Source: Sporopachydermia quercuum (Eukaryota). Taken from it: a stretch of 64,000 nucleotides of DNA. The notes beneath the pieces were generated by a model, which saw only the letters and a program-made list of their open reading frames with translations, made no database searches and had not been told where the DNA came from. This document shows, piece after piece, positions 17,743-64,000 of this stretch. The number at the start of each line of letters is the position of its first letter. Positions within the stretch are counted from its first letter, which is position 1. The stretch spans positions 1,116,001 to 1,180,000 of the forward strand of contig BCGN01000003.1 in the NCBI GenBank assembly GCA_001599295.1. Direction: 5' to 3'. Made by a program: the position numbers and the translations under genes.

Positions 17743-18054
17743 AGATGTCTATTTACTTCACCACAAATAGACGAATAGAACCATAGACAGATAATTGATC
17801 TCCAGGTTTTATTAGTGCAATATCGTCAGTAGAGAACAATGACAGAGCAATTGCTAATTCTAGCCCTGTTCTATTAAATTCTTCATAAGAAATAGATAGG
17901 TGTGTCGAAAGATTCGCGTTAAGTTTCATAGTAGTACCTTTGNNGTATCAACAGATTTTGGCATTCCACATTCACATATCTGTACATTCTGGTGTGATCA
18001 TATGTAAATGTAGATTTTTAATTCTTAGTTGCAATGCATTATATATTTTTATAA

Positions 18055-41548: not shown

Positions 41549-42276
41549 AAAAAAAGTTGAGCAGTTAAAAATCAGCCCGATAATTCGGAAAATGAGTTAT
41601 TATTTCAGATGGTTAATGAGCGTGAATGTGAGATGTAATTTAGTTTCAGGGTTTCAGACCTTGGAGTCATTAAATTACTTGACATGGTTAGATGTCTAAT
41701 AGGGAGCGATGAGGTTGATTTGAATTTCGGAAAAGATAATGGCATTTTCCTAGCTGTTTTGGATCTGGTACTTATTGACCAAACTTTTCTATTTTAGTTT
41801 AATCACAAAGTAATGGTATCGTCAAAAATCTCTAACTTCTTTCTTGAAGTTATCAATTCAGATATACTTCATTTCGCATGCTGTCCTCTCTATATATCCT
41901 TTACTAAATCCTTCTCTCGGATACAAACTCATTTCATGTGTCTCTGGGTGTGGTTTCTCGAACACCTAGAGATCATGTGTTGTTTCAATACCGGAAAGCA
42001 TGTGATTTCGGAAATTATATGTTATTTGCTTACAGTAACATAGCATTATTCAATTTTTCTGCAATGTAAAGACAATAATTATCGCCTTCGCCATTCTCTA
42101 TATTCTTCTTCTTCCTATTGAGGAGTCTTTCTTAAAGTACAGTATTCGAGATTAAGTGTTACTATACATGAATATCTCCTTATGACCCTTGCTGATTTAA
42201 CTCCTCACCTAAGGTTAATCAACTCTTTCTGTCAGTTGTATCAAACCATTAGACTCCTTGACGTTCCATCTGAGCA

Positions 42277-44202
42277 ATGTCATTATTCAATAGACGTTTG
42301 AAGCATATCTCATCGCCAAATACATCAACGACTTCATCAACTACCTCTGCAAATATATCCAATACCGAAAGGACATATAAATGCTTTCCCTCTAGGTATT
42401 CTCATACAAGAGCTCGTTCCAAATCACCTTCTGATCACTGGAAAGTGAAACATGAAAATGACCACCCGTCTAATGACAGTACTTCGTATAATTCTTACCC
42501 GAGATCTGATAGAAACGAGTTAAACTTCCAGAGGAGGCATAGGGAACTTGAATCACAATCGAAATCATTCTCACATAATGATCCACGAAATAGAACCAAT
42601 CCAGAACCTCATACCCGTCAGAATTACTCGTCATCAATACCATCATTACGAAGTAAATCCTCTTCATACAAGTCATCACGTAGCAATGAAAACGAAGATA
42701 TAAAAGTTCAAAAATGGGTATCTCAAGAAGATGATTTTGCCCTACAACAATATTTCCGTGGTTGCATGCTTAGAATCAAAGATAAGAGAGATAAACCAAT
42801 TGATAGAATAGCGATTGTAGTGAAACTGAAAGATGGTATAGGAAGATCAAATTTAGATCAAGAAGTATTTGAAAACGTTGCTGGTGTTGTTATACCGGAG
42901 CCCGCCTACAGTTTAATTGACAAATTAACAAAAGATGAGATCCCTGAGCTTTTAATGAAAGAAATTCCGAAATACAAGAATCTGGATACATCTAAGAAAG
43001 AGAATGTCGCTTTCTGGGAGAGTATTGAATTGTATAGTAAACACAAGTTAAAGATGCTAAACAATGAAGAAGATCCAGAGGATAAACTTGTGAAAGTGAT
43101 GAAACATGATATAGACAAGGTTATCGATGGTAAGACACTGGATCAGTTGAATGACCTGCAGGCAAAAGTGAAGACCACTTTAAACTCCGATGCTGATGTA
43201 GACAAGGACTTCTGGACAGCTTTACATAAAGAGCTTCTAATACGAATAGCAAGAGAACGTATTGATAAAATTCTTATTCGTGCTATAGATACTTTGGTTA
43301 TGGAAATAAGCAGACTTCAAATGAGGGAATTATTCAAACACAAAGAGAAACAGGAAGAAGAAGGTATAAAGACGGAAAAGATGGAAAATGTTGGGAATGT
43401 GATTACGGTAAAAATAGAAGAGGACAAATTAGATGAGAAAACTGAAAATAATCTGTTTCCCTCATTTCCTATATCCAACAATGAGCTTATCCCAAATGAC
43501 TTGTTATACAGAAAAATTCAGCAGAATCCTTTGGATAAAGGGAAACTAATAAATGAGTATCAAGAATATCTTGCTGAGTATAGAAATTACTATAATTCTA
43601 ATATCGCAGCTAATGCTAGGCCTATTACAACTGTTGTTAAAGTGCAAGTTCAAAAACCTATTGACCCTTCTAAAGCAACAGTTGATCCTTTTATTGATTC
43701 TGCTTTCAATTCTATCCCATTAAATGATGATCAAGTTGCTTTCAACAATGATGAAAACCTAGTAAACATATTAGGAGATAAATATGCTAGCCAAAAGAAC
43801 AACATAAAACCTAGGTTTCATAATCGCGTAAAACTTGGCTTTGAATGGAGCAATTATAACAGATTGCATTTCGATTCAGACAATCCCCCACCAAAAGTCG
43901 TTCAAGGGTATTATTTCAATATATTTTATCCGTTATTGAAGGATTCTCCCAAAACACCAACATTCAAAATACTTAAACAAGGGATTGCCAAAGGGAAGCT
44001 ACAACATCCAGATAGTGGAATTGAAGAAGATACTTGTATTATATTATTTCAGGCCCCTGAGCCTTATCAAGATATTGGTTTCAGAATAGTCGATAGACCA
44101 TGGAATCGCCAATCACGAAATGAAGGTGGATTCAAATGTACTTTTGAAAACGGTGTATTACAACTTCATTTCAGGTTTAAGAAGTTAAGGTATCGAAAGT
44201 AA
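42277..44202 (+). CDS. Cactin (splicing factor; S. pombe Cay1 family)
   Basis: WVSQEDDFALQQ (cactin mid domain); KPRFHNRVKLGFEWSNYNRLHFDSDNPPPKVVQGYYFNIFYP...PYQDIGFRIVDRPW...LQLHFRFKKLRYRK (CactinC domain). Confidence 0.93.
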   Translation: MSLFNRRLKHISSPNTSTTSSTTSANISNTERTYKCFPSRYSHTRARSKSPSDHWKVKHENDHPSNDSTSYNSYPRSDRNELNFQRRHRELESQSKSFSHNDPRNRTNPEPHTRQNYSSSIPSLRSKSSSYKSSRSNENEDIKVQKWVSQEDDFALQQYFRGCMLRIKDKRDKPIDRIAIVVKLKDGIGRSNLDQEVFENVAGVVIPEPAYSLIDKLTKDEIPELLMKEIPKYKNLDTSKKENVAFWESIELYSKHKLKMLNNEEDPEDKLVKVMKHDIDKVIDGKTLDQLNDLQAKVKTTLNSDADVDKDFWTALHKELLIRIARERIDKILIRAIDTLVMEISRLQMRELFKHKEKQEEEGIKTEKMENVGNVITVKIEEDKLDEKTENNLFPSFPISNNELIPNDLLYRKIQQNPLDKGKLINEYQEYLAEYRNYYNSNIAANARPITTVVKVQVQKPIDPSKATVDPFIDSAFNSIPLNDDQVAFNNDENLVNILGDKYASQKNNIKPRFHNRVKLGFEWSNYNRLHFDSDNPPPKVVQGYYFNIFYPLLKDSPKTPTFKILKQGIAKGKLQHPDSGIEEDTCIILFQAPEPYQDIGFRIVDRPWNRQSRNEGGFKCTFENGVLQLHFRFKKLRYRK

Positions 44203-47554: not shown

Positions 47555-49446
47555 CTATTCCTTTTTCTCAACCATCCTTTCACCTTCAGCGCTATTCTCA
47601 TTTTTCTTATCGCTTACACTTCCTTTTTCCTCTTCAATTGGTACATCAACAGCAATCACACAACAAAGCCACGTCGGTAACCAAACTAATAAAACCAAGG
47701 GGAACGTCCAAACTTTCATTCCAACCCATCCCCATATCAAACCTTGTAAAAACCCCTGAGGACCATTCACCCATTTTACAGATACTACGACAAACCAGAA
47801 AAATGGCGACGATATCGCAAGAAGTATATAATCAACCTTCTTTCCAGCAGAAAACCCAACAAAGCTCATAGGTATAGCAACAGTGCCTATTAACACAGCC
47901 ACAGCAAAATGTAGCATAGCAGCTCCTGTTAGAGCTACACTAAAATATAACAATCCAATTATCTGGAGATATCGAACTTTAGATTTTGAGACTTTCACTC
48001 TTGTTTTCTTCAATAAAATAGGAATTAATGCGCTGCAAATAGCACATCCTATCAGTACTGGTAAAAAGAAGTACCGAGATACTTGCAGAAACACTGCCCA
48101 TATGCCACAACAGAATACGCAAACGCTTGACAGAGCAGCAAGCGCTGGTAATACATCCTTTGTTTGCAAATAATCAGATTGTAGCCACAAAGCAATTGAC
48201 TTTAGAGCAAATGAAGCCGCTATTAATATACCAGGAACAAGATAATTACCAATACTAGTAAATATCTTGGGACCCAATAAAATATAAAAGAAAAATGATT
48301 GATGGAAATGTTCTAATAAATTATTGACAGACCTAAGTAATGCCTCAATAACTCTACCAAAGGTTGTTATATCTGCTGGTCCTTCATTACCAATAGCTTT
48401 GACTGTAATTGCTTGAATTCTCCAACCACTGAATGACTCACAACCAGGGCCCGGTCTTAACCCTGCAAATAATGAATTGAGTAATCCTCTTAATAAAATC
48501 AATACTCTATCAAGGTATCTTTGTCCTTGACTTTCTACCTGCTGAATCGTAACACTCAATCTTTCATGATTGATTATAGAAACAGCTACATTGACCAAAT
48601 CAAGATTTGGTAGTTGACCATTAAGCCCTTCATAATACAATTCAACAGAATCAATGTAATCACTAGTTCCTGGAAAATCCATTATGAAAGCAGCTTCAAT
48701 CGACCCTCCTGTAACGTCTAAAGAAGTATGATAAGCTTCTGCCCAAGCCCTAAGACATATATAAGGATCTCTTGGAAACACTACGATGATATTTTTTGCC
48801 CAAACAGACCATCTTGAAACAAATCTAGCTAAACCCATAGCAAGAGCAACTCCTCCGTTGTTGAATTGACCATCTTTATTGAACCAGGGTGCTACTATAA
48901 GCATTGCTTCAGTATCATCTCCTCTTGGAGCGTGTAATACGCCATAAGGTGTAATACCAGTCAGATTTGATTCCAAATAGCTATAATCCCATTCATGAAC
49001 TCCTGTCTTATATCCTATATTTTTCAACCAGCTGACAATTGTATCTGATCGACTGTTTAGCTCACAGTTAATACTTAAGATTTTATATCTAATATGAAAA
49101 AGATAGTAAACACAACAAAATAAGAACTTGGTTGGTCATTCGTTGTATCATCACCTAAAGCATATACTTACTATTGTTCAGTGGCATCTTCCAACNTATT
49201 AACTTCACCACGATACCCTCGGACAATATTCCATTCGGATTCACGGAAATAACTATAGGCTTGAGAAGGCATTAATGCATTTTCTGAGAAATATGTCCGA
49301 CGGTATTGTCCATCCATTGGTAACCAAAATATCCACGCAATGCCTACAATTGCTACTAGAAATGCAACGTATGAAGAAGATCGGATAAGAAAAGGAAGGA
49401 TACCCATACGGGTAAGCTTCCGTCTTAGAACTTCAACTAGTGACAT
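47555..49446 (-). CDS. GAA1: GPI transamidase subunit Gaa1, 2 exons, 590 aa
   Basis: Exons 49446-49172 and 49052-47555 (GTAAGT...TATTAAC...CAG). Motifs YRRTYFSENALMPSQAYSYFRESEW, APRGDDTEAM, NGQLPNLDLVN and LRSVNNLLEHFHQSFFFY. Confidence 0.96.
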
Positions 49447-50413
49447 TTCTGTATACTGGAAGGGAAATTGAGTAAAAGTAGAGGATGGGCCGAGCTGAAA
49501 TGTACTGAGATCACGGGTACATCCGTATAAGACATCCGAGATTGAGGTTAAGTAAAAGGAAGATCCGTTGTCACATAAAGCTGTTTACTTAGTGGGAGAT
49601 TAATTTCGGAGAAGATGGAGTGACTTNAAACTGTATTATTTCCGTNATAAATGGAAAATGAGTATTATAATAAGATCTCAAAGCATGCAGATATGTACAT
49701 GATTGTACATACCTACAGGAATGAGCTATGGTGATAATGCAATGTTTAGTAGCAGTAACTTACAGGTATAACAGTTTGAAAGAAACTTATTTGATTCAAC
49801 TTAAGAGTTCTTCAAATATTTATATTCTCTTCTTCTATTAATATCAATACCTGCTACAAGCTAATATTAACTCTTTGCCCAAAGCTGCTTATGCTGAAGT
49901 TCTAGCAGTTCACCCTAACATGCATATCTATGCATATTTATACATTGTAACTTCCTATGATCACAGTCTCTTAACAGAGTCTACAACAGCNACGAATATA
50001 AATATAAATAATGTAAATTATCATAATAAAAACCCACAACATTTTTCCTAATGTATAAATAAACCTAAATAACCATACTCCATTGTTTCTCCCATATAAA
50101 TTTGTTCTGTTTCTCACTTGCCATAGCTATAATAGCTCACATACCATACAGTTCACAAATTGGTAGAACACTCAATTTGAAAACATTTAAAAAGTATGAA
50201 TGAGCTTCAAGCTCTTTCAACGTTCAAATCATTCTGCAAGACTTAAAAACATACTCATATTTTCTGACTAATTTCGTAGTTTTCTTGGATTACTTTCATA
50301 ATCAAATCACATAATCAGTAATAAGTATTATCTCCGCTATTCAAAAATATTGGAAAGGATGCTTCAATTAACAACTAATCATTTGACCTTCGCCAAAACC
50401 CAGCTTTTTTCTC

Positions 50414-53400
50414 TTAAAACTCTGCTTTGGAATCAGTTTTCACATCCGTTCTCCCATACGACGCCTGTTCAACTGGAGATCTTCTTGCTCTTGCCTCTTT
50501 CCTTCTCCCTAACGTCGCATGATACTTCCCTTCTGCCTCTTTAACCAACTTCTGCAACCCTACTATCACCACTTGATGAATAGCCCCAGGGAAACTATCT
50601 CTATGTAATCCAAACCATTCTAATGGTGGNGTCGCGTTTCCTAATTCCTTTAGCTGCGGAGGATCAATTCGTGGCTCAGCTATTGGTGAATAAACATACT
50701 TCTTATCTAGTTCTACCTCTTTCAGTTTCTCCTCAATATTAACAGTTTGAAANAATGGAACGTCCTCTTTAGCATCAGAATGCTTCAAAGTAACTAATCG
50801 AGATGACAAGGATTTAGCATAGGTACTCCACATTTCTCTTATAAAGTTAATGGATCCAATATTCCATCGGACTTCTACTTTACCATCAAAACGACTAGAA
50901 AACAGGAAATCAACGTCAAATTTAGGTATTTTCTGCCATGTTTCCATATCAATAACTAGTGATGGAACAAAGAATAAACTGCCTCCATGAGCTTTCTCTG
51001 CCCTGGTTATAAATGCTTCCACAGAGATATTCTCCATATCTTCTTTATCACTGATTATATTATCCGAAGTTTCTGATAATGCAATGTTAACTCTTTGCAG
51101 TTGCATGAACAGTTCATCATGAAGTTTCCCATCCACACATTCTTCAGCAAAACGAGCTTTTATCTCCTGTAAACGAATAACAACAACTTGAGTATCAAGT
51201 AATGAATTTGGATAAATATGAATAAGAACATCCTGAGTTATTTCCAGTGACATTATAATGCTGATCAGCTTCAGAAGTCCTGCTTCTTGAGTTGATGATA
51301 GTCTCTGTAGACTGCGACGTCTGCTGGTAGAAGCAACAGGTAGAGGAGGCGTTGGAAGAGGATTAGTACTGAATGTACTGTTATTACTGAAACTATAACG
51401 ACGATTGAAAGCGGATGATCCAGCTGGAGTTGAAGTTGGATGCGTACTGTCTGGCGTATCAGGAATTATATAAGTAGCATCTTCAAGTACAGCATGATAA
51501 CTTGTTTTATTATCATGTTTCATTCTTTTAATTGTATTGAAGATGTCAAGAAAACTTGCTGTTGCTAAAGCTGTCATGTAGACTTTCACGTATTTGCAAG
51601 TTTGGATGCCGACAAGTCTATCATTTCCGAAATCCAGGGTGAACTGGGAACCGGAAGAGATATTGGATTCGGGATCGAAACCAGGACCGGATTCGAGACC
51701 CAGATCGAAAAAGTCTGAATTGAGGTTTGCATGGAATCCAGTAACATTCGGGTCAGCTTGTTTATGACAGTTCTGATTAAATAATCCGATTTGAAATTCA
51801 TTGATAGCGGCAATAAAGAAATAATGATAATCAAATGAAATCTGGGTTTCAGTGCTACCGACATGTGCCGACAATAAGACTCTCGGTATGTCCACTTCCG
51901 AGGTTCCTTCCGAGGTTCCTTCCGAGGTAGTTTCTTTCTTAGGCCATGACATTGCCGAACTAATCCAGATGTCCTTAACTAACAAAGTTCCGGATAGTCT
52001 TCCTTCGGCGGCGACGTTAACATCGCCAACTCCAAACGCTAAGATTTGTTTATCATCTTGGCTCTTCCGAGAAGAAAGCCACAATCGTTCAATATTTAAA
52101 GTCGACGTACCGAGCGATTGACTGAGATCGGTCCGAACTTCTATATCTAATACGGATAAATCAATTCTCCACGGGAAAGTATACATATCATTAGCTTTAC
52201 GCACACTTTCTGCTAACGAAATTGCCACTGCATCCGGTCGGGTAGGAACGGATGAAGTTTGTCTTCCAGATTTTCTCGGAGGTCGCCAAATATCAAAAAA
52301 TAAGTCTAAATCCTGTGCTTGTTGCATATTGATCCAAACCTTAACTTTATCACCGGAAGTGATTATCCCGGCGTGTTTTCCTGAACCTCGCCAAATTGCT
52401 GCAACGGTTAAATCCTCAATTGAAACTGATCCAGAAGTATCTCGGGAATAAATATGTTTTAAGCTTCCCGACAGCTGTTTTAAGTTCACAGAACCCATAA
52501 TCTCGATTCTTCTGTCTGGCTTATTCCGGACCGAGAATAACATGTCTAGTTTGGAGTATCCGATATCGGCTATAATTTTAGCTGTGGGTTCACATGATAA
52601 AAGAATTTCCTGACTTCCGGTTTGAAAGCCGAGGTTCATATCGATTCCATGCAGAAACTCGGGTAAATCAGAAGCACTGTTTCCGGAACCATTCTTCANT
52701 ACTTTCGGAGCCTTATTTATCCTATTTAACCTTGTTTGCTTCATCCGAGCTTCATCTTGCCGCTTAATTACCGTCATTAGGTTGTTAAACATTTGCACGG
52801 TAGGAATGACGCAAGCAGGAGTTAATGAATTCCGAGACGGAGATATTCCAATGTTAATATTGAGTAACTTACCCTTCGAGCCTGTCGGATCGGTTTGGAA
52901 CATTGTTGATATCCGGACTGCAGGTGCCTGCATCACTGCACATGGAGCCAAGGGAGTTTTGCTACTACTTCGAGTAGAATGTTCCGCAAATTTCCTATCA
53001 AAGGTATGGCTTTCATAAAATTCAATGCAGCCACCTGCGAAAGAGAAAACTCCTTCGAAAACCGAAAAGATAGCAGAAATTCCGGGGGGCATTTTCTTAT
53101 GTTGAGGATCCGAATACATAATGGCTGGTCGTGTGGTATTATAATTTCCAGTATTGCCCACAGGCTTTAATTCCTGTTGGACCAAAGGATATTTCAATAA
53201 TAACGTATCAATGGCCAATTTAACTTCCGATATTGACACCATTATATTATCAATTAACAACGGAACACATGATAATAATATAACCCTTAATTGTTCACCA
53301 GTAACATCAACTTTAACCTTCCTATTTGACCCGCTGCCCTCGGAAACAAACATTAGTATCATTTCCGGTAATATTGCTGCATCTCGGATCAATGTCCGAT

Positions 53401-56400
53401 CTCGGATATGAAATGTACTTGATAATTCGCCTCCAGCAATAGTTAAGAACGATTCCACTAAAGTAAGTTTAGCAATGTTCCGCTCGGCAACAATATAAAC
53501 CTTGTCACAACCTAAAATCACTCCTGGATATAACGCGTACCTCGGGTCATCGAAGATCCATCCGAAACAAACGTCTAAGAATAATACATGCACAGAAACG
53601 GAGTTGTATAAATCAGAGAAGAAATTATCTGAGCTGTGACGTTCCGGAGCGAACGCTGGAAGCGAATTTGGTATAGTTTCCGGTTCTCCTTTGGAACCAA
53701 TGGAAATGATATTCATCACAGTAACAGCACACTGCCCATAAGTAGTTAAGAATTCCGTTAACAGGGTTCGGCAAGCTGAAACCCAAAGATGATCACATTG
53801 GACTTGGATTGATTTTCGAGTTGTAGGATCATCCGAGACCGAGTTTTCTACCCGAAGCTTAACTGTGAAGTCCAAATACTCCTGGAGTGACTCTGGAACC
53901 AATTCGCTATCAATTAGGGCAACAGTTCTTGGGAAAGACGCGGTACCATAAACTGATACCTCGCGAATAGATGGTTCCGAAGAATCGGACGAGTTTCCTG
54001 ATTTTGATTGGGAGACAAAGTTTGAGCCTGAGAATAAAGTTTCCACAGATCTAATAACGTATTCCGATTTACCCACAAATACCAGTATATTGAATATATT
54101 GACTCCAGCNACAATGGAGTACAACAGTTTCCGAGATTTAAGAGCTGAAGGAGTAGGTTCAGGCTTCAGTTCCGATTTAGCCATATATTTAAATTTCCCG
54201 GTTTCTTCCGAAATAACCTTCTTTCTAACCTTGTTCACCACCATTTTCACACGTTCTTCTTCTTTCCTCATTATTTCCAGATTCTCTTCGACATACTTTA
54301 ATGTATATATTAATTCTGGAATTATTAACTGGCATTCCGATAATTCCAGGCGACCAATTAAAATATCATTCCAGTCCTCGGGCCGAGATTTCACAAAAAT
54401 ACCAAGCTCTTCTAATATTAGTTCCGCCAACGGAAAATTTTCTTTGCTCTGGACTCGATTCCGATTCTGGTTCCGATTCCGGGTGCGCTCTGCTGGTTTA
54501 ACTAGCTGGAATTTAAGTCTTTCAAACCAAAAACTGCAAAACCAAAGCTCGGCAGCAGAAACAACTTGGAAATCGACTTCCGATTGATCTAAAATCAGGT
54601 TCAAGGTTTCACTGAGCTTAAATTCACCTCGTATGATGTTGCAAGATAGATAAGTGAATGATTTCCGAACGTAAGGAATAGCGGAAAGGATAGAACTTCT
54701 TCTTGTAGAACCGGAGAAAGAGGCGGAAGGGGAAAGAGTAGCGACGCTCAAATTGCCACCGCTCACTCTTTTTCCTGTTATTCTGGTTGTTTCCGATTGG
54801 ATAATATAATCAAGAAACCCGAATAACTCAGAATCAATAAGTTCATCGGCAGTACGGAGTAAAGCCATCAGTGTACCCTGTAATAGGACACTTTGTACTG
54901 TAGGACGGAAGTCCAATTGCAGGCCTAAATCGCCGAGCCAACCGAGACAAAAGCAGTCCGATTCGGTTAATTGCACTAGAAGAGCGGTCTCCTGCATCCT
55001 AATTCTCCCGCTCTCGGCAACCCCTAGTTGTGCTTTCATTAATTTACACGAAAATGATAGATTTAAAGCAGTTGGTGAACCGTGTGCAATGGAGAAAGTT
55101 CCTGTTTGTAGGATATCCTCGGCAATGAACTGTAGCATAACGTCACCAGTGCAAAATTTGAGATCGACATTGCATAATAATACGGCAGCTACACATTCCG
55201 AAGTTTTTGATAAAGAGGAAAATATATCGCCGATAGTTGTTGCTGTTGTTTCCGGTTTATCACATATCGTCTCCGAGATATCTGATTCTCGTTTACTATT
55301 TCGTCCGTTAACATATTCCATTACTTCCGTAATCAGCCTCAACGATACCATACCTATCCGACAGGCAATACCACCAATTGTAACGGATAAATGATCCTTG
55401 TCTTCGGAAAATGTTGGTTTTACTGCTAAATGTGATGTATCATATCCAATGGAAACGGAATCTATACGGATATAATCTTCATTATCAGATGCTATGCATC
55501 GGATAATAAAACTGTCCGTTCGGAAGTCCATTCCTCCCAAATCTCCCCCAGTTTTATCAAATTTACCGAACATAGGAAATACCATCTGAAAGAAGAAATT
55601 ATTTCCAATATCAACAAACTCCCAGCTCCTCCATCGGGAGAAAATATTCTGTACTTCAAGGGCTTGCGCTTCCCCGATCTCGGGACAAGATTCCACCCGG
55701 TGTAGAAGATCTCGGGAGTAACTTTCGGGTAAGCTTTGCATAACGTGTCTTATTCGGGTAATTATTTTCCAACTGTCATTACTTCGGATATGATTCGGAG
55801 AAGACCGGATAATATATGAAGGTTTAGTCAAAGCGGTCGGATCATGTTCAATATTGCATTCAGCCGAGGCTTTTGACAACACATAAACTACTGCTGCTTT
55901 CCGTTGTTGCCGAGATTTTCCTAATTTGGTCAGCCGATTAGACCATCTGGCTACCGAATCAAGTAACAATTGCCCACCCCGGATAATAAACGGGGTCTTC
56001 TCCATATGCACAGTAATTTCTGAGCTTTTGATCCGAGAAAAATACACCGAAAGATCGGATGAATGAATTCCGAATTCGATATCTTCCAATTGTACTTCTC
56101 CGCCTGTCGGATCGTCGAAAAGCAGTGATTGTGATTTATTACTTTTCTTTTCTAATAGGGTAATTATGATTTCATTGATTCCGATTGCAGCATCAAATAA
56201 TTCCGAGCGGTTCTCTAATGCGTTCCGAGCGGTCCATAAATCCGCCGAGCAGGCCTTCTGAGTTAATTTATCTCCAAAAACCACCGAGAATCCTTTTCCG
56301 GAAAGAGTGAGATGGTCACAGAGCTGAGCGGCATCATCTCCGAGTACGGAATAAGGTTCCGAAACGTTAAATTGGCCATATTTGATGCATACTGAGGAAC

Positions 56401-59400
56401 ATAAAACTCGAAGATTAAGCACGGCGAATTTCCCTATTAGTAGTTGAGTTAAAAAGACAGTGGCATCAAATTGTAGCTCATCTAACACAGACTCAACCGA
56501 TTGTTCCGTTTCCGATACTTCAGCTACTAAATCTGTAAGAAAATCAATTGCAACCGGAGTGAAAAACCCAAGAACCGGCCGAACAGAGCCCACAAACGAG
56601 TCATATTCATATGCTTCTTCCGGGGTATAACCCGGCCGAATATCGGCATCGGCTTTTCCTAAAGCGGACCATGTTGGCTCTTGACCGGGCTGTACTTCGG
56701 AAATCGAACCGAGCTCGGACACAGACTCCTCGTCAATGCCGAGAATGCGGGAAAACAGTTCCGTTGTAAGAATTGAATTGTTTAGTACTATGTCTAAGGA
56801 ACCGGAATTTAACGGAGGCGGTAAATTCGGAATGGAATAAGACGGAAGAATTGTTCCGTAAGATTCCATGTACTCTTCGTCTCGTAGTTGGTCGGAAATC
56901 AAAAACGGAAGCCTGTGGAAAGGTCCATCGTGGTATTTCACGTGCAATTGCTGTAGATGCCGATTTCGGTCAAATTCGGCTTTNTCCATAAAGTCAGTTA
57001 TCCGAATTCCCGTCTCGGTATATCCAATAAGCCGAGATTGCTCATGAACGAATAACTTTATATCCGGGACAGAGATGTCACATCTTCCCGAGTATCGGCT
57101 ATTAGCTATATTGTTAAGTCGGATAATTGGAGAACGTATGATTAGCTCGGCCCAGGTACCTCCAATTGTTCCGAGATTAACCCGAACTTCAGATATTGTC
57201 ATCGATAAGCATAATATATCATATTCCGGTACATCCGGCATTTGTAAACTATTCTCTTCATCGGAATAGCCGATTACAAAGACTTTACCAGCATTCTGAA
57301 GATCTGATAAAAATGATAGCCCCCCATTTATTACTAGTGAACCTAATTCAATATCCCATTTACAAAGATACGTAGGTTCATCCGGTGGTCTTCCGAACAT
57401 CCGGTGTCCTTGAATCATAAGCCCTGCAAGGGTTCCTTCTGAAACACCGGCGTTCATGCCCGCACAGGCATGCCAACTCCGGGCTCTGTCTGAAAACTGT
57501 TTCGGATCGTTGCCATTATAGTGTCGAAGCTGCATCGGTTGTACATCAAGGTGCATGTCCATGTAATAATTAGTGAACCTTAAATCAGCTTCTAGTCTGG
57601 GAAAATGCATCCCGATATGAGATGCGGAACTATAAATATTCCCGGGGAGTACGAGACAGCCGTGTTTAATGTCAACTGTTAGCATAACGTCTAATTCATT
57701 TTCTTCAATGTCGGCACTCATATCGGATTTCGGATGAATGTCTAACTCCGGGTCGGGCTTCGGATTAAGTTCCGAATTTTCCCGTGACGTTGAAAACTCT
57801 TCTAGTGTTTGAAAATGAACATAATCTCCGAAATAGTTGTCCCGCACTTGCATAAGGTACCGGATGACTTCACCATAGCCATATAAAGTAACGTCGGAAG
57901 CTGTAGCATCTAAATTAACGGAATCGCAGTTTCCGATTTTTTCCGAAGAGTGGAAAGTATAATTTCCCAATAGTCTAAAATCGTACGCTCTTCCGACTTG
58001 TTTACAAGTCAAAAATGAAGATGCGGTATGCCATGACGGAGTATGCAACGCTAAATTGAACAAATCAGAAGAAATCGTGAAAGGAATGGTCCGAGATCTC
58101 GGGTAAATTTCCGAACTTGGAACATCTAACTGAAGCTTGAAAACATCTCCCGAAAAAGCTAGAAAGCAATTGTCCTCAAAATCAATTGGATTGTTGATGA
58201 TATTACAATCATTAACATTAAGGTATAAAGCATAATCAGCAAGAGACCAATCAAAGTTCACTGACATCGGAGTAAATCGCTCATATTCATCTCCGATAGG
58301 GGCTGAAATTGATCCGAAATCGTCGAGTAGATCCGAGATAAGTGTCACGTGTTCCCGAAGTAAGAATATTTCAGCAATTTGTGATTTATGAGTTGAATTC
58401 CATTCGATTTTGCCGTTCCACTGTAAAGAAGAATCAAAGTTCAGTAAGATATCGTGTTTCTGCGCTTTTAAAAGGATTCCATGATTTACCGAGGTTCTGA
58501 TCTCCGGTTGATCAAATGAAATCCGAGCCGTGTTGTCTATTCCTTTTGGACTGGTAATTAGCCCGAATTCTACTCCAACGGTTGTTTTTTTACCCGCTCT
58601 AATTTCCAGCCATCCATAAGGCCGGACCACTTCCATAGTTTCCTCTCCGGACCCAAATAAGGCTCCGTACTCGGCCCGAGCTTGATTGGCAAATGACTCA
58701 TCTTTTGAACCTTCTCTAGTAGGCACTGTGAGGATTACCTCATCAATAAATTCAATTAACAAGGATACTTTTGTATGTTGTCTAAGATCAGTAATACTTC
58801 CCGGTTTTGCAGGAATCAAATCTCGGCAAACCGATGGGAAAATCATTTGAAATAAAGCATCTTTTTGTCGGTTAGTCCAAGGTCCGTAATTAATTGTTGA
58901 TGACGTAAACCGAATTTCCATTTCACAGCGGGGGGCAGGTTGGCCATCGTTTACTAAAGCGGAAACTTTGTCTGGAGTACTGCTCAGATCAGAAATCATA
59001 TCAAAATCAATTCCACTATTTATTCCGTTATGCGCTCGAACACCAATATATCCAGGAACATCTACGGAATAGGTGATATCTCCGCCTGCCGACGAGAAAA
59101 CATTTGATACAGCTGCATATTCTTCAACTGCAAAATGGATTCTTTCTAAATCGTTCAAATTGGTGTCATTGATATACCGTGAAAGACCCTTCCACTTATG
59201 GTTCTTATCATCCCAAATAGTGCTTCTCCTTCTATTAAGCCGGCTCTTGCTTCGTCTAAACCGTTTCAACATCCGGAGATATCGAAGGAACTTTTTAGAA
59301 ACTCGTTGGTGAACTTTCATTCCCCTTTCGAACGTATTTTTTTTAATCTTGGCGATACTGTCACCTTCATAAGGTTCTAGATAATCCATATTAGCTTTCA

Positions 59401-60358
59401 ACTGCAAGGAAAGATCAGTGAACGTGGAAGAAATAGTTGTGTTATATTTATCAAACGGAGAAGATGCCGGAAGTAAGTCTAAGAAGCCAGATAAAGTAGC
59501 TATATGTCCAACTAGCACTGATGGTGTGATATTATTCCCAATTACTATTGAGCCATTGGATACAGAGAATTGAATAGGAAAAGCATTCTGAAAAAATAAT
59601 ATCATCTCCGAACTTTGGGCTAATTGCTTTCGAATCTCGGAAGATATGTCATCCAGTGATTGATCTTCCGTTATTCTTTCCTTTTTCTCGTTACTACTAG
59701 TTGTTCCACTATCATCTCCAGTTTTCTCGTTTCCGCTATCTTTTCCACTTTTCACATTGCTTTTGTCATTGCTATCATTTGCCGTATTCCAGCTCCGAGA
59801 ATCGGAAGTTATGTCTATTTTAATATCCGATATTCCTGTTTTCTCTTTGTCTGATTTAATCACATGCTCCAAAATGTTCTCGTATGCTTGCGATCTGTTG
59901 TAAACAAACATCTCTGCGCCTTCCACTTCGAAAAAGAACCGGGAGGGCTGGCGAGCATTTTTCAGTTCCGAGTTTCCCGCAGAAATCTCAGCAGCTTCTC
60001 GGGAATGAAACACAAGTTCAGATCGCCGCACTCGCCGTAACCAATATCTCCAAGTTACTGATCCTCGGTATAAACAAATCGTACTATCCGTTCCAACAAT
60101 TATAAAATTCTTAAACAATAAGCGACCACCTAGAAAAGATATTTTCAAAGATTCAATTTTGATGGTAACGTTACCTTTACGCCATAATAAAACCCGTAAA
60201 AGTGATGTAATAGCTATTGCTATTATCCTATCAAAATAAAATGCAAACAGCACTGCTATAGCCAGAATAAGAACCCATGTCATAAGGAATACCCAACTGA
60301 AATCACGTGTGTCCACCGGGTCTAGTGACTTGGCTCTTAGAGCTGAAAGCAGATCCAT
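50414..60358 (-). CDS. CSF1: Bridge-like lipid transfer protein Csf1 (BLTP1/KIAA1109 family), 3314 aa
   Basis: N-terminal TM, then ISFLGGRLLFKN..WRYW, INYGPWTNRQ, LYLNVNDCNIINNP, DLRFTNYYMD, GHRMFG.PPDEPTY.CKWD and HIRSNDSWKII.R; C-terminal PPQLKELG..PPLEWFGLHR. Next to GAA1, as in YLR087C/YLR088W. Confidence 0.95.
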   Translation of the reverse strand: MDLLSALRAKSLDPVDTRDFSWVFLMTWVLILAIAVLFAFYFDRIIAIAITSLLRVLLWRKGNVTIKIESLKISFLGGRLLFKNFIIVGTDSTICLYRGSVTWRYWLRRVRRSELVFHSREAAEISAGNSELKNARQPSRFFFEVEGAEMFVYNRSQAYENILEHVIKSDKEKTGISDIKIDITSDSRSWNTANDSNDKSNVKSGKDSGNEKTGDDSGTTSSNEKKERITEDQSLDDISSEIRKQLAQSSEMILFFQNAFPIQFSVSNGSIVIGNNITPSVLVGHIATLSGFLDLLPASSPFDKYNTTISSTFTDLSLQLKANMDYLEPYEGDSIAKIKKNTFERGMKVHQRVSKKFLRYLRMLKRFRRSKSRLNRRRSTIWDDKNHKWKGLSRYINDTNLNDLERIHFAVEEYAAVSNVFSSAGGDITYSVDVPGYIGVRAHNGINSGIDFDMISDLSSTPDKVSALVNDGQPAPRCEMEIRFTSSTINYGPWTNRQKDALFQMIFPSVCRDLIPAKPGSITDLRQHTKVSLLIEFIDEVILTVPTREGSKDESFANQARAEYGALFGSGEETMEVVRPYGWLEIRAGKKTTVGVEFGLITSPKGIDNTARISFDQPEIRTSVNHGILLKAQKHDILLNFDSSLQWNGKIEWNSTHKSQIAEIFLLREHVTLISDLLDDFGSISAPIGDEYERFTPMSVNFDWSLADYALYLNVNDCNIINNPIDFEDNCFLAFSGDVFKLQLDVPSSEIYPRSRTIPFTISSDLFNLALHTPSWHTASSFLTCKQVGRAYDFRLLGNYTFHSSEKIGNCDSVNLDATASDVTLYGYGEVIRYLMQVRDNYFGDYVHFQTLEEFSTSRENSELNPKPDPELDIHPKSDMSADIEENELDVMLTVDIKHGCLVLPGNIYSSASHIGMHFPRLEADLRFTNYYMDMHLDVQPMQLRHYNGNDPKQFSDRARSWHACAGMNAGVSEGTLAGLMIQGHRMFGRPPDEPTYLCKWDIELGSLVINGGLSFLSDLQNAGKVFVIGYSDEENSLQMPDVPEYDILCLSMTISEVRVNLGTIGGTWAELIIRSPIIRLNNIANSRYSGRCDISVPDIKLFVHEQSRLIGYTETGIRITDFMXKAEFDRNRHLQQLHVKYHDGPFHRLPFLISDQLRDEEYMESYGTILPSYSIPNLPPPLNSGSLDIVLNNSILTTELFSRILGIDEESVSELGSISEVQPGQEPTWSALGKADADIRPGYTPEEAYEYDSFVGSVRPVLGFFTPVAIDFLTDLVAEVSETEQSVESVLDELQFDATVFLTQLLIGKFAVLNLRVLCSSVCIKYGQFNVSEPYSVLGDDAAQLCDHLTLSGKGFSVVFGDKLTQKACSADLWTARNALENRSELFDAAIGINEIIITLLEKKSNKSQSLLFDDPTGGEVQLEDIEFGIHSSDLSVYFSRIKSSEITVHMEKTPFIIRGGQLLLDSVARWSNRLTKLGKSRQQRKAAVVYVLSKASAECNIEHDPTALTKPSYIIRSSPNHIRSNDSWKIITRIRHVMQSLPESYSRDLLHRVESCPEIGEAQALEVQNIFSRWRSWEFVDIGNNFFFQMVFPMFGKFDKTGGDLGGMDFRTDSFIIRCIASDNEDYIRIDSVSIGYDTSHLAVKPTFSEDKDHLSVTIGGIACRIGMVSLRLITEVMEYVNGRNSKRESDISETICDKPETTATTIGDIFSSLSKTSECVAAVLLCNVDLKFCTGDVMLQFIAEDILQTGTFSIAHGSPTALNLSFSCKLMKAQLGVAESGRIRMQETALLVQLTESDCFCLGWLGDLGLQLDFRPTVQSVLLQGTLMALLRTADELIDSELFGFLDYIIQSETTRITGKRVSGGNLSVATLSPSASFSGSTRRSSILSAIPYVRKSFTYLSCNIIRGEFKLSETLNLILDQSEVDFQVVSAAELWFCSFWFERLKFQLVKPAERTRNRNQNRNRVQSKENFPLAELILEELGIFVKSRPEDWNDILIGRLELSECQLIIPELIYTLKYVEENLEIMRKEEERVKMVVNKVRKKVISEETGKFKYMAKSELKPEPTPSALKSRKLLYSIXAGVNIFNILVFVGKSEYVIRSVETLFSGSNFVSQSKSGNSSDSSEPSIREVSVYGTASFPRTVALIDSELVPESLQEYLDFTVKLRVENSVSDDPTTRKSIQVQCDHLWVSACRTLLTEFLTTYGQCAVTVMNIISIGSKGEPETIPNSLPAFAPERHSSDNFFSDLYNSVSVHVLFLDVCFGWIFDDPRYALYPGVILGCDKVYIVAERNIAKLTLVESFLTIAGGELSSTFHIRDRTLIRDAAILPEMILMFVSEGSGSNRKVKVDVTGEQLRVILLSCVPLLIDNIMVSISEVKLAIDTLLLKYPLVQQELKPVGNTGNYNTTRPAIMYSDPQHKKMPPGISAIFSVFEGVFSFAGGCIEFYESHTFDRKFAEHSTRSSSKTPLAPCAVMQAPAVRISTMFQTDPTGSKGKLLNINIGISPSRNSLTPACVIPTVQMFNNLMTVIKRQDEARMKQTRLNRINKAPKVXKNGSGNSASDLPEFLHGIDMNLGFQTGSQEILLSCEPTAKIIADIGYSKLDMLFSVRNKPDRRIEIMGSVNLKQLSGSLKHIYSRDTSGSVSIEDLTVAAIWRGSGKHAGIITSGDKVKVWINMQQAQDLDLFFDIWRPPRKSGRQTSSVPTRPDAVAISLAESVRKANDMYTFPWRIDLSVLDIEVRTDLSQSLGTSTLNIERLWLSSRKSQDDKQILAFGVGDVNVAAEGRLSGTLLVKDIWISSAMSWPKKETTSEGTSEGTSEVDIPRVLLSAHVGSTETQISFDYHYFFIAAINEFQIGLFNQNCHKQADPNVTGFHANLNSDFFDLGLESGPGFDPESNISSGSQFTLDFGNDRLVGIQTCKYVKVYMTALATASFLDIFNTIKRMKHDNKTSYHAVLEDATYIIPDTPDSTHPTSTPAGSSAFNRRYSFSNNSTFSTNPLPTPPLPVASTSRRRSLQRLSSTQEAGLLKLISIIMSLEITQDVLIHIYPNSLLDTQVVVIRLQEIKARFAEECVDGKLHDELFMQLQRVNIALSETSDNIISDKEDMENISVEAFITRAEKAHGGSLFFVPSLVIDMETWQKIPKFDVDFLFSSRFDGKVEVRWNIGSINFIREMWSTYAKSLSSRLVTLKHSDAKEDVPXFQTVNIEEKLKEVELDKKYVYSPIAEPRIDPPQLKELGNAXPPLEWFGLHRDSFPGAIHQVVIVGLQKLVKEAEGKYHATLGRRKEARARRSPVEQASYGRTDVKTDSKAEF
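51895..51928 (+). repeat. 12-bp in-frame tandem repeat (CTTCCGAGGTTC) x ~2.8 within CSF1, encoding TSEG-TSEG-TSE
   Basis: Read directly; each unit carries a TTCCGA word. Confidence 0.9.
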
Positions 60359-61352
60359 TATAGGGTTAAATCATATATAATCTATTGAGTCATTGAACAT
60401 CTAACAATATTTAGTGGTTCTTCGATGATGATTCTTCGGCGTTGTGTGATCGGATGTATTTGTATCTGAAAGGTCAACTGATATGCGTTGTGTTAAAAAT
60501 GCTATTATTGCTATAAACAATTATATGGCTTAATTGGTATACTCTGATATAATAAATAGGTAATGACAGTAATAGATAATTGTGCAATACCTGTAAGATG
60601 TCTTGCTATAAACCTGGATAACTGAGATGAGAAAGAAAGGAAATACACAGGCAATTATAATGGGGTTCCGGAATTAATGCATTGTCTGATTAGCTTAATA
60701 TTTCCGGAATAAATGTCGGAGATGATTGTTGCAGTAAAAGCGGAGATAATATTTTACATTATATCCGATTATTTCAAACTTGAGATTATCGTCTCCCAAA
60801 ATACAAATACTTTACTATGAAAAAAGGGAGAACTTTGATAAACAAACTAATTAAAAGGAGGTAAAGGGATTTTAAAATATACATTCTACTCTTTTCAGTC
60901 AGATCATTTTTTTGTCCCTTGGGCATCCTCCTTCATACGTTTCCTTATATGTTGCATTGCTGCACCATTCTACTAACCTACATGAATTGCTTTCAAGTAT
61001 GTTTCATTCATCATTATTCAATCATCTCCTTACTCAAACTACAAAAATAAGTGTGTCAAAATCAGTAAATCATGTTTGAATTGGACAAGCAATATATANA
61101 ATAAAAGAGCTTTCAATATTCCCTGCAACAGCAAACCAATAAAGCTTCATAACTCACTTCCACTCAAATGATATCTCCACTAACTTAATCAAACATCAAC
61201 GATATCAGATCTATTCCATCAATAACAATACTAAGAGAGTATAACCTCCTAGTATAGCATAGCATACTATAGTAAATTTCTTTAACCACATTATCATTAT
61301 TGGCGATGAAGATTCTTATCGTTTTGCTACTGATTCTCATTTTCCTTGTTTC

Positions 61353-64000
61353 CTATGGATTTTCTTCAACAGTTCCAAAACCTCCTCCACCAGGAGTCTC
61401 AATTATAACCCATTCACCTGGTTGCATACGACAAGTATTCTTCCCACCAAGATTGACTGTTATGAGTATCTCTTCGCCCGTAACAGGATTTTTCCTCTTT
61501 CTACGCCATAAATTCTTACCTACTTTACCTGACTTGCCTCCAGCGTATCCAAATGGCGCTACACTTCGTCTTTCTGACAAAATCGACACTTGAACCTCCT
61601 TAGAAAATTCAATAGCTCTAATAACCCCGTGCCCACCTCTATTTCTACCTTCACCACCTGATCCCCACCGAATGGAAAACTCCTGTAGTATACATGGATA
61701 TCTTTTCTCTAATACTTCAGGATCTGTAGATCTGGTATTAGTCATGTGAACTTGAACTGCATCCTGTCCTATCCAGTTCTCGCCTGCTCCCGCACCACCA
61801 GCAATAGTTTCGTAATAACCAAACCCTTTCCGAACTTCTGACGACCCATCATCGGATTTCTCTCCACCATATCCAAATGTTAGATTGTTGCAAGTGCCTT
61901 GAGAAGCTGCCATTACACCAAATGCTTTTAAAACAACATCTGTTACTCTCTGAGAAGTTTCTACATTACCACCGACTGTAGCAGCTTCAATCGATGGAGA
62001 TAGCAAACAGTTTTCTGGTAGTAGAATCTTCACCGGTAATAAACAGCCTTGATTCAATGGAATTGAGTCAGAAACCATACATCGCAATGAATATAATATA
62101 GCAGAAGATGTAATAGACGTTGGTGCGTTCAAATTACCATATACCTCGGGCCCAGTACCAGTGAAATCAAAAACAGCGTCACCATTTTCACCGTCAATAG
62201 TTATTTTCAACTTTATGACTGTTCCATCATCAATACAGTCAGAAGCTTCCAAAGGTTCGCCATCGAATTTCTTATGGAACTGTTTCAAAAGCTTTCTAAC
62301 TGTTTCTTCGGCATTATGTTGAATAGCATACATATAATACTGGATTTCAGGCAACCCAAATTCAGCAATAAGCCTTGAAATTAATTGAATTCCTTTAGTA
62401 TTAGCAGCTATTTGAGCTTTCAGATCTGATAATGAATCACCAAGACTTCTACTACCAGAACAACCGGGATACTTTGATGGTTCTGTATATAGAAGATCAA
62501 TCATTAGATCTTCATCAAAATGACCTTCTTTAACTACCTTAGAACCTAGGATTTGCGCACCTTCTTCCCAAATCTCTTTAGAAAAAGGGGGCATAGAACC
62601 CGCTGAAATGCCACCAATGTCTGAATGATGTCCCCTTGATGCCGTCCAGAAAATGATCTCTGTCTCAGAGCCTGGAGCGAAAACTGGGGTTATAACAGTG
62701 ATATCTGGCAGATGTGATCCACCACCAGCTGGATGATTCGCAACAATAACATCACCAGGTTTTAAATCGCTGCCCCATTTTTCCTTCTGAAATAATACCG
62801 CTGAGCTCATTGACCCTAGATGGATAGGAATGTGAGGAGCATTGGCTACTAATCCACCGTCGGGAGAAAACATTGCGCAGGAGAAATCTAATCTTTCTTT
62901 AATATTGGTAGAAATAGCTGTTTGTCTTAATGTTTGACCCATTTGTTCAGCAATTGACATAAATCTATGGGAAAACACTGACAGCTTTATAGGATCAACA
63001 GTTTCCGACACAGCTTCCGAAATTTCCTCTGATATCTTCTCCGGTTTATTTTTCCCCTCAAATGTCTCCAGAATCAACCCCATCTCATTAACGGCAACAG
63101 TGCATTTCCAACCTGGTTCAACAACAATTGTCTGGGTATCATCTAAAATAAGTGCAGGTCCAATAATACAATCACCTTCAGATAAATCAGCTATATTAAA
63201 CGTTTCCGTTTCAACCCAAACTCCAGTATCACTAGACTTATCTTCGAAATAGACTTTCCTGCTACGAATTGATTTGTCTGATGACGTAATCTTTATTTCC
63301 TTAGGAAGATGAACAACAACATCGGAATCCTTGTCGGTATTTGAGTGTAATATTCCTCTTACTCTAACGTCACTGACAATAATATCTCGACTTAGAATAA
63401 ACCCGTATTCTTGTCTGTGCTTTGTAATGAACGACTCTTTAACAGAATTCAATTGTTCGGTTACATCTTCTATTGATTGTTCAGCTAATGGCAAATCACC
63501 AGCATCAAAACGGGTCATTGCCGACGTTTCAGTTCCTTTATAACGTAAATTAAGATATCTTTCAATCCTAATAGTTTCCAGTCCAAAGCTTTGTTCTTTC
63601 AATTGCTTTCTCACTTCTTGCTCTTCAAGTTCAAGTTTTTCTTCTAGTCCTATTAAACTATCCACGTCCAATACGGCTGTTACAGGTTTGCTTCTCTCAG
63701 CAACAATATCAGCTACTGCCATTCCATAAGCCGATAGAATACTAGAGTATTTATGTATAATAATACTACTTATTCCAAGAGCCCTTGCCACTGAACACGC
63801 ATGCTGACCACCAGCACCTCCAAATGATGCTAGTTTATGTCCTGATGCCAAATAGCCTTTACCTTCAGTTAAGCTTCTAATAGGACGACACATTGCTTCG
63901 TTTGCAACTTCTAAAAACCCTAGTGCAACTTCCTGTGGCGATAATGCTTGTAAATTACGTCTGGTTGCATTTATTTCTGCTGTTAGATCAATAAACTTCT
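61353..64000 (-). CDS. OXP1: 5-oxoprolinase (ATP-hydrolysing), 3' part (5' end outside window)
   Basis: The frame appears open to the window end (...GFLEVANEAMCRPIRSLTEGKG). Motifs FGGAGGQHAC, SVFSHRFMSIAEQMG, NIKERLDFSCA, HMTNTRSTDPE and ETPGGGGFG. Confidence 0.96.
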   Translation of the reverse strand, partial: KFIDLTAEINATRRNLQALSPQEVALGFLEVANEAMCRPIRSLTEGKGYLASGHKLASFGGAGGQHACSVARALGISSIIIHKYSSILSAYGMAVADIVAERSKPVTAVLDVDSLIGLEEKLELEEQEVRKQLKEQSFGLETIRIERYLNLRYKGTETSAMTRFDAGDLPLAEQSIEDVTEQLNSVKESFITKHRQEYGFILSRDIIVSDVRVRGILHSNTDKDSDVVVHLPKEIKITSSDKSIRSRKVYFEDKSSDTGVWVETETFNIADLSEGDCIIGPALILDDTQTIVVEPGWKCTVAVNEMGLILETFEGKNKPEKISEEISEAVSETVDPIKLSVFSHRFMSIAEQMGQTLRQTAISTNIKERLDFSCAMFSPDGGLVANAPHIPIHLGSMSSAVLFQKEKWGSDLKPGDVIVANHPAGGGSHLPDITVITPVFAPGSETEIIFWTASRGHHSDIGGISAGSMPPFSKEIWEEGAQILGSKVVKEGHFDEDLMIDLLYTEPSKYPGCSGSRSLGDSLSDLKAQIAANTKGIQLISRLIAEFGLPEIQYYMYAIQHNAEETVRKLLKQFHKKFDGEPLEASDCIDDGTVIKLKITIDGENGDAVFDFTGTGPEVYGNLNAPTSITSSAILYSLRCMVSDSIPLNQGCLLPVKILLPENCLLSPSIEAATVGGNVETSQRVTDVVLKAFGVMAASQGTCNNLTFGYGGEKSDDGSSEVRKGFGYYETIAGGAGAGENWIGQDAVQVHMTNTRSTDPEVLEKRYPCILQEFSIRWGSGGEGRNRGGHGVIRAIEFSKEVQVSILSERRSVAPFGYAGGKSGKVGKNLWRRKRKNPVTGEEILITVNLGGKNTCRMQPGEWVIIETPGGGGFGTVEENP

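Follow-up and report, generated by a model that had tools for sequence, protein, structure and literature searches.

The DNA analysed here, called the window below, is a stretch of 64,000 nucleotides from Sporopachydermia quercuum (NCBI GenBank assembly GCA_001599295.1, contig BCGN01000003.1, positions 1,116,001 to 1,180,000 of the forward strand). On its minus strand the window contains a long open reading frame (ORF) for a CSF1-family protein. Most of this ORF is overlaid by CCG and CGG trinucleotides. In the following we demonstrate this CCG/CGG overlay, its specificity for one word, its independence of the reading frame, its edges and the reality of the underlying DNA, and we weigh the causes which may have produced it. 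A word is a CpG in a CCG or CGG context; an opportunity is a place where CCG or CGG could be written synonymously. The features at the center of the locus, in window coordinates, are:

50414..60358, minus strand: CSF1-family ORF, a bridge-like lipid-transfer protein of 3314 amino acids (Pfam Csf1_N, E=3.8e-232; Csf1_C, E=6.9e-126)
51611..60091, both strands: CCG/CGG word island, best form TCCGR/YCGGA, bounded by maximum-likelihood change points; 344 words, about 1 per 25 bp, in CSF1 coding sequence and in 3 phases
50414..51610, minus strand: word-poor 3' end of the CSF1 ORF, used as an internal control; 5 of 93 opportunities used from codon 2950 on, 5 words in 1187 nt
51895..51928, minus strand: 12-nt tandem repeat of 2.8 copies, just within the sharp edge of the island, with the word inside; it encodes TSEG repeats in the protein (Tandem Repeats Finder score 68)

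The CSF1 gene and its host lineage

The CSF1 protein had 320 homologues with E<=0.001, the best of which was only about 31% identical. In an alignment with 23 orthologues it was conserved over its full length, in the island and in the ends alike. Therefore, CSF1 is an intact gene on which purifying selection acts. The protein was not significantly accelerated within the island; the identity ratio to the orthologues was about 0.78 compared with about 0.86 in the ends, the latter being represented by 5 windows. The amino acid composition of the island leans mildly towards Gly and Arg. Gly was at 1.41 times the orthologue mean in the island versus 0.75 times in the ends, and R/(R+K) was 0.53 versus 0.48.

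An initial sequence-only reading of this DNA had raised the question whether CSF1 orthologues in other yeasts carry the word. It was enriched in 0 of 3 metagenomic CSF1 loci with 30-34% identity, the only ones which a metagenome scan yielded, where observed/expected values for CCG/CGG were 0.48-1.16 per kb. Therefore, CSF1 genes do not carry such an island as a rule; loci this far removed provide no date for its origin.

Among named organisms, OXP1, another gene in the window, has its closest relatives in Nadsonia, Blastobotrys, Sugiyamaella, Trichomonascus, Wickerhamiella and Yarrowia (57-62% identity). Because these are not Saccharomycetaceae, the host is an isolated, early-branching budding yeast outside this family.

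Extent and density of the word island

The enrichment of CCG/CGG in CSF1 is confirmed as real and far exceeds chance. Between 51601 and 60100 we counted 344 words, whereas the k-mer frequencies of 15 other ORFs predict about 57 (z = 38). This corresponds to 21.0 words per 600 bp versus 3.4 in the rest of the window, or to about 40 per kb in the island versus 6.8 per kb in background coding and 6.1 per kb in intergenic DNA. The latter value led us to reject a neutral equilibrium which is simply unmasked in a weakly expressed gene. When the whole window was divided into 600-bp bins, every bin from 51601 to 59401 held 13-31 words and those elsewhere 0-11, the sole exception being bin 49201 with 15. 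Manual counts in five 600-bp segments (about 35, 12, 2, 1 and 6) on which the sequence-only reading was based agreed well with an exact recount (34, 12, 2, 1 and 6).

In terms of opportunities, 344 of 813 in the island carry CCG/CGG (42%). In the CSF1 ORF outside the island the figure is 8 of 113 (7%), and in the 15 other ORFs 4-17.5% of the opportunities are used. The extent was determined with a two-rate model by placing maximum-likelihood change points on the use of opportunities along the CSF1 ORF. They fell at codons 89 and 2915, i.e. at window positions 60,091 and 51,611. The low-coordinate edge, which is 3' in the gene, is sharp (51,611; 2-lnL support 51,491-51,629) and coincides with the edge near 51.6 kb already noticed by eye. 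The high-coordinate 5' edge is loose (support 59,980-60,340). Because of this poor resolution the island may reach up to the ATG (60,358) or beyond it. Within CSF1 the use of opportunities was about 30% in codons 100-549, 53% in codons 550-1599 and 37.5% in codons 1600-2899.

Word specificity and sequence context

Other CpG contexts had been described as barely changed, and they numbered 8.8 per 600 bp in the island and 7.5 in the rest of the window. Relative to base composition the observed/expected value for CCG/CGG was 2.27 in the island versus 0.56 outside. For GCG/CGC it was 0.53 versus 0.51, for ACG/CGT 0.65 versus 0.58. Per synonymous opportunity the odds ratios against the other ORFs were 5.8 for CCG and 6.0 for CGG and only 1.1-1.4 for GCG, CGC, ACG and CGT. 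The G+C content rose only from about 0.35-0.39 outside to 0.40-0.445 in the island. On the sense strand CCG was used at 158 of 533 and CGG at 185 of 597 opportunities. Thus, the strand symmetry seen in the sequence-only reading holds for the trinucleotide.

The contexts which had appeared to be favoured are indeed greatly over-represented. The island contains 85 TCCGA/TCGGA, with 4.9 expected from the other ORFs, 60 CCGAG/CTCGG (2.4 expected), 43 CCGGA/TCCGG (2.4 expected) and 44 ATCCG/CGGAT (2.7 expected). Around CGG, T (0.49) or C (0.27) is favoured at -1 and A at both +3 (0.50) and +4 (0.44); positions further away carried no information. The extended word has a mild strand bias, with CGGAA at 58 of 178 and TTCCG at 29 of 148 opportunities, while the bare trinucleotides are symmetric.

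The word positions had no helical or nucleosomal period (maximal band power 2.7 versus a null 95% level of 7.2). In 100-bp bins the words were slightly more even than random (variance/mean 0.81), as is expected when density is selected over a limited number of sites. The commonest triplet pair was CCG-N4-CGG, found 10 times. Matches within the island were short and at chance level; repeat families were absent. A tandem or dispersed repeat family or a mobile element was rejected on these grounds, the 12-nt repeat at 51895 being the only one of its kind.

Codon usage and reading frame

Here we examined whether codon usage can generate the island. Two null models were used in which the protein was kept, with 500 draws each. 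The same protein written with background codon usage gave 96.4±10.4 words (maximum 127). Shuffling the island's own synonymous codons gave 264.8±9.2 words (maximum 299). The observed 344 words exceed both distributions. Hence the enrichment persists in a codon-preserving shuffle, and codon-usage bias was rejected as the cause.

The statement that the word falls in all three codon phases was borne out by a recount of 94/154/96 for the 344 words. Against background codon usage this was 94 versus 14.4 in frame, and 154 versus 50 and 96 versus 32 off frame. Off-frame words were about 40 above the shuffle of the island's own codons in each phase. In the island, the share of C at third codon positions was 0.39 before GG and 0.42 before CG, compared with 0.22-0.23 before codons starting otherwise. 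In background ORFs only 9-13% of third positions before GG or CG are C; C is avoided there before G (0.12 before G, 0.09 before GG, 0.20 otherwise). Thus, third-position C in the island is set by the first two letters of the next codon, and words are in excess off frame. Therefore, we can conclude that this is not codon bias. The sequence-only reading had come to the same view, and the excess over the island's own codon usage in all 3 phases bears it out. Background ORFs strongly avoid CpG across codon boundaries as well, and in them all four CpG trinucleotide classes have observed/expected values of 0.51-0.62.

The shift was similar wherever the word can be written. Pro was encoded by CCG at 44 of 114 positions in the island versus 2 of 22 in the ends of the CSF1 ORF, Arg by CGG at 50 of 154 versus 1 of 29. 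Across codon boundaries NCS|G was used at 154 of 273 versus 4 of 27 opportunities and C|GG at 59 of 150 versus 0 of 13. In every opportunity class the odds of the word were up about 4.5-11-fold, and by codon phase the increase was about 5-11-fold in each. A shift of such uniformity resembles the effect of a weak bias in fixation which favours a single word.

A general rise of G+C at third codon positions (GC3) was not found in the island. From background to island the codon shares were 0.60 and 0.72 for AAA, 0.72 and 0.72 for GAA, 0.65 and 0.66 for CAA, 0.70 and 0.67 for AAT, and 0.73 and 0.72 for TAT; AAA also had a share of 0.72 in the CSF1 ends. A tract of GC-biased gene conversion or a GC3-rich domain was rejected, as none of these codons is shifted to GC. 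With the words masked, codon usage and k-mers of the island equaled those of the other ORFs, and the residue was if anything slightly more A+T-rich. Therefore, the overlay sits on a native-style sequence. Asp GAC rose from 0.14 to 0.28 in the island, even where no letter of a CpG or of the word is touched (p = 0.0004). It is the sole residual codon shift which the word does not explain.

Finally, the transcript was inspected. The folding energy did not differ from that of synonymous shuffles (mean z -0.33±0.18 in 37 windows) and per 150 nt amounted to -30.7 kcal/mol inside and -30.4 kcal/mol outside the island. Local structure thus gave no signal, and the earlier view that an mRNA signal is not involved holds in this respect. 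The longest alternative frame in the island had 211 codons at ordinary stop densities, and no hidden ORF was apparent. Rfam and tRNA searches were without matches. On these data a structured RNA and an overlapping gene were rejected.

Word patches outside the island

The word also occurs in two small patches, one on either side of CSF1. The features concerned are:

49220..49642, both strands: word patch covering exon 1 of GAA1 plus 5' flanking DNA; about 420 bp with 15 words, including TCGGA, ATCCG and CCGAG
49171..49446, minus strand: GAA1 exon 1, 91 codons to an in-frame stop; phmmer match to residues 1-89 of GAA1 (PDB 9ub7_A, E=5.9e-28)
47555..49027, minus strand: main GAA1 ORF, separated from exon 1 by an intron (Pfam Gaa1, E=4.1e-121)
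60621..60810, both strands: word patch about 300-400 bp upstream of the CSF1 ATG; 7 words/150 bp, Poisson p=5.7e-5

GAA1 and CSF1 are adjacent and on the same strand. Both have ties to glycosylphosphatidylinositol-anchor and lipid biology. Words filled 8 of 27 synonymous opportunities in GAA1 exon 1, and 8 of the 15 words in the patch were located in the 196 bases of 5' non-coding DNA (49447-49642). Between this patch and the island is a word-poor gap of about 2 kb which includes the last 1.2 kb of CSF1.

The patch upstream of CSF1 contains two TTCCGGAAT palindromes, two CGGAGAT and one ATCCGA. The palindromes are near-identical and 36 bp apart (60664-60712), followed by the two CGGAGAT. These TTCCGGAAT and CGGAGAT sites look like genuine promoter sites. 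The palindromes also match a TTCnnGAA heat-shock-element half.

Sequence data covering the locus

Contigs from three runs of two studies (X1 to X3) span positions 49647-62000 unbroken and at ordinary depth. Compared with the window, X1 and X2 had 0 differences; X3 had 2 substitutions and a 12-nt gap. These runs possibly derive from the window's own source sample; they bear on the reality of the DNA and not on other strains. Because the contigs are contiguous, an assembly chimera is ruled out. The 12-nt shortening in X3 is located in the tandem repeat at 51895-51928, and the two substitutions are adjacent (51928-51929). Run X4, from another organism, contributed only a 49-nt piece in OXP1.

The window has 34 scattered N sites, about 1 per 1.9 kb (e.g. 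1219, 17943-17944, 52699, 54110 and 56984), which are single save for one pair and have no sequence context in common. In the island there were 3 with about 4.5 expected. Probably, they represent ambiguous or heterozygous calls.

Comparison with known systems

In fungal promoters, CGG sites for Zn(II)2Cys6 proteins of the Gal4/Ppr1/Pdr1/Tac1 type occur in clusters. Like these half-site clusters the island has a CGG/CCG core with a T before and an A after it, is distinguished from GCG/CGC and is accompanied by small word clusters in two 5' regions. It differs by its approximately 340 copies inside an ORF and by triplet pairs without fixed spacing or orientation. Sites for Zn(II)2Cys6 dimers were rejected, as no distance from 1 to 60 stood out in the four orientation classes. 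As judged from the sequence, core and flanks (T 0.49 at -1, A 0.50 at +3) would fit a monomer-type half-site.

Vertebrate CpG islands likewise are kb-scale accumulations of CpG words in a CpG-depleted genome (observed/expected about 0.55 here). However, only CCG/CGG is raised in the CSF1 island, and above expectation (2.27), whereas the other contexts stay at 0.53-0.65; moreover, it occupies a gene body. With GCG/CGC at 0.53, ACG/CGT at 0.65 and a G+C content of only 0.40-0.445 a vertebrate-type CpG island was rejected.

Over-represented oligomers embedded in genes are familiar from bacteria, i.e. Chi, DNA uptake sequences and the FtsK-orienting polar sequences (KOPS). These, too, are frame-independent words in coding sequences which are due to drive or selection at the DNA level. 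They are prokaryotic, genome-wide, 8-12 nt long and often strand-oriented, whereas the yeast island is local, strand-symmetric and built from a word of 3-5 nt.

The sequence-only reading had pointed to centromere DNA element III (CDEIII), which is bound by Cep3. In a point centromere it adjoins a CDEII of high A+T content. TTCCGAA/TTCGGAA is indeed present 15 times in the island. Compared with a point centromere the words are scattered over 8.5 kb of ORF, and no single CDEI-II-III unit of about 125 bp was noted, an architecture that was not searched for. The CBF3 complex is not known outside Saccharomycetaceae. Because the closest named relatives of OXP1 (57-62% identity) are outside this family, a link to Cep3 and CDEIII is unlikely.

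In budding yeasts, introgressed tracts and domains with a non-adaptive nucleotide bias, e.g. the left arm of chromosome C of Lachancea kluyveri, are also bounded stretches with their own rule at synonymous sites (PMC9246145). They are GC3 shifts over many genes, in contrast to 8.5 kb of one exon, a single word and no GC3 shift in the present case. Repeats of (CCGNN)n are another CCG-based DNA with a physical effect on chromatin; they exclude nucleosomes (10.1101/511600). Apart from the one 12-nt tandem repeat, the island lacks such a 5-bp tandem register or any periodicity. Within the literature covered by our search no yeast gene was described as containing a CCG/CGG island that is independent of the frame.

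Discussion

The above data raise the question what keeps a single short word at such a density in a functional gene. Tentatively, we consider as the likeliest cause an actively maintained, dense array of low-information half-sites which is read by a putative CGG-specific DNA-binding protein. This array is ranked first only narrowly. With it one can explain why a single word is affected, on both strands alike and in every frame, why there are satellites in non-coding DNA and how the words are maintained. CCG/CGG behaves as a weakly favoured allele wherever the protein sequence allows, with about 42% of the permissive sites filled, and the gene still encodes an ordinary Csf1 protein beneath an overlay at the level of double-stranded DNA. 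The number of words and not their exact place would matter, and the stretch may be a binding platform or a sink. Fungal zinc-cluster proteins discriminate CGG from other CpG triplets, and members of the Zn(II)2Cys6 family would be the obvious candidate readers. The word clusters 5' of CSF1 and GAA1 could then be ordinary sites of the same reader. In mutation-accumulation lines of S. cerevisiae and S. pombe, CCG/CGG reportedly ranks with the most mutable contexts (PMC4704713), and products of CpG decay were not in excess in the island (96 TCCA versus 83.5 expected; 61 TCTG versus 84.4 expected). Therefore, the words must be young unless they are actively maintained. What we infer is that they are kept by a fixation bias rather than by mutation, that a putative protein reads them and that they have any function at all.

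Several points weigh against such an array. First, paired triplets have no favoured spacing or orientation at distances of 1-60 in any of four orientation classes, apart from a weak 3-nt ripple, and most Zn2Cys6 dimers need a fixed spacing and orientation of their triplets. The missing dimer spacing and the abrupt 3' edge are left unexplained. Second, an array does not explain why the words cease abruptly 1.2 kb short of the stop codon, nor the profile of 30/53/37.5% along the gene, and it does not predict the mild sense-strand excess of the extended word (TCGGA at 56 of 179 versus TCCGA at 29 of 145 opportunities). Third, the motif adds only about 0.4 bit to the CGG core. Fourth, outside the island TCSGA is not commoner in intergenic DNA (0.82/kb) than in coding DNA (0.73/kb); thus, there is no sign of a general use in promoters. 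Last, a selected array of comparable size within an ORF is, to our knowledge, without precedent.

If a protein does read the array, kilobases of synonymous sites carry a second, non-coding message which is far denser than single regulatory sites. A novel type of chromosomal element would then be open to testing in a yeast lineage which has received little study.

An imported tract is the first competitor and unlikely in its own right. The island, perhaps together with both satellites, would be a mosaic generated by gene conversion or introgression from a diverged haplotype or a sister lineage endowed with the overlay, and the sharp edges would be recombination junctions. This accounts for the geometry: the 3' edge is resolved to about 140 bp within an exon and matches no feature of the gene, and on both sides small patches of the same style follow within 2 kb, the pattern of a discontinuous conversion tract. 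Foreign nucleotide-bias domains including an introgression are on record in budding yeasts (PMC9246145). However, apart from the words the style of the DNA is that of the host; masked codon usage and k-mers match it, so the donor would have been host-like save for this word, and the origin of the overlay is merely displaced. The nearest CSF1 relatives, at about 31% identity, are too far away for a phylogeny. Further, a tract this short, at a divergence which the words alone put at 3.4% or more, would presumably be hard to recombine. Flanking repeats or marks of mobile elements were not found at the locus; neither an 18/20 match between the satellite patches nor an inverted 17/19 match around CSF1 exceeds chance level or extends further. 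Coverage was normal and single-copy. If the tract was imported, one would expect an as yet unsampled lineage whose genome carries a highly unusual signature.

We also doubt, though do not dismiss, a word-specific bias of repair or gene conversion in which mismatches at CCG/CGG, in a stretch frequently present as heteroduplex, are mended towards the word, so that it rises as if weakly selected and no function is involved. The uniform shift of odds, the random-looking placement and the short context are what a weak, site-independent fixation bias would leave, and the drift of amino acids to word-friendly residues, Gly in particular (1.41 versus 0.75 times the orthologue mean), fits as well. Ordinary GC-biased conversion is excluded because AAA/AAG, GAA/GAG, CAA/CAG, AAT/AAC and TAT/TAC are not shifted to GC. 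A conversion gradient falls away from a promoter hotspot, unlike the use of the word, which is lowest near the promoter, peaks in mid-gene and ends abruptly. We know of no CCG-specific repair bias in eukaryotes and of no enzyme for it. Such a bias would be a new neutral force which rewrites codon usage locally and misleads tests for selection on synonymous sites.

Returning to an array that is read by a protein, a more far-reaching version is quite unlikely: a selected chromosome-level element on top of a working gene, serving a putative CGG reader as a platform for tethering, for pairing or segregation, for silencing or anti-silencing, or as a transcription factor sink. Copies might be present at about one per chromosome, or on giant genes of a special class. 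If true, this would be dual coding on a large scale, of a kind not described in eukaryotes.

A local, context-specific mutation bias, the alternative named in the sequence-only reading, is improbable. A process restricted to this domain would make CCG/CGG faster or lose it more slowly, e.g. by shielding through protein or chromatin. The short context, the strand symmetry and the words in non-coding DNA are as it predicts. Yet an observed/expected value of 2.27 is above that attainable by relief from CpG decay alone, with the other CpG contexts at 0.53-0.65. The precursors are diffuse: the loss in each of CAG/CTG, CCA/TGG and CCT/AGG is just about 18%, and several steps or transversions are required for, e.g., AGA to become CGG or GGT to become GGA. 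In its pure form the proposal is weakened further because, in both yeasts for which mutation-accumulation data exist, CCG/CGG is one of the contexts that decay fastest (PMC4704713). We keep it as a minor rival.

A translational or mRNA signal, i.e. slow codons (CGG, CCG, CGA, TCG), structure or a motif for an RNA-binding protein, is highly improbable and largely refuted here. In-frame CCG/CGG had the largest fold rise (94 versus 14.4), and TCGGA(A) is mildly in excess on the sense strand. Nevertheless, off-frame words are enriched as well (154 versus 50 and 96 versus 32), words are also found outside coding DNA, the sense strand uses CCG and CGG equally often per opportunity, and folding energies equal those of synonymous shuffles. 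An assembly or sequencing artefact or a contamination is scarcely credible with three sets of contigs spanning the locus and a frame that is unbroken across 3314 codons.

Further word clusters in the window

Two additional clusters were observed at a distance from CSF1. An ORF of the Na+/H+ exchanger family (8228-9853, minus strand) contains 9 CCG/CGG in 150 bp (9110-9260, p about 7e-7). The flavour of this cluster differs, being ACCGG/CCGGT, and its host ORF has the highest background use of opportunities (22 of 126). In the intergenic DNA upstream of a cactin-family ORF (42277-44202) four TCSGA and one CCGGA are located within about 420 bp (41585-42008), a grouping that is not significant after correction for the number of windows.

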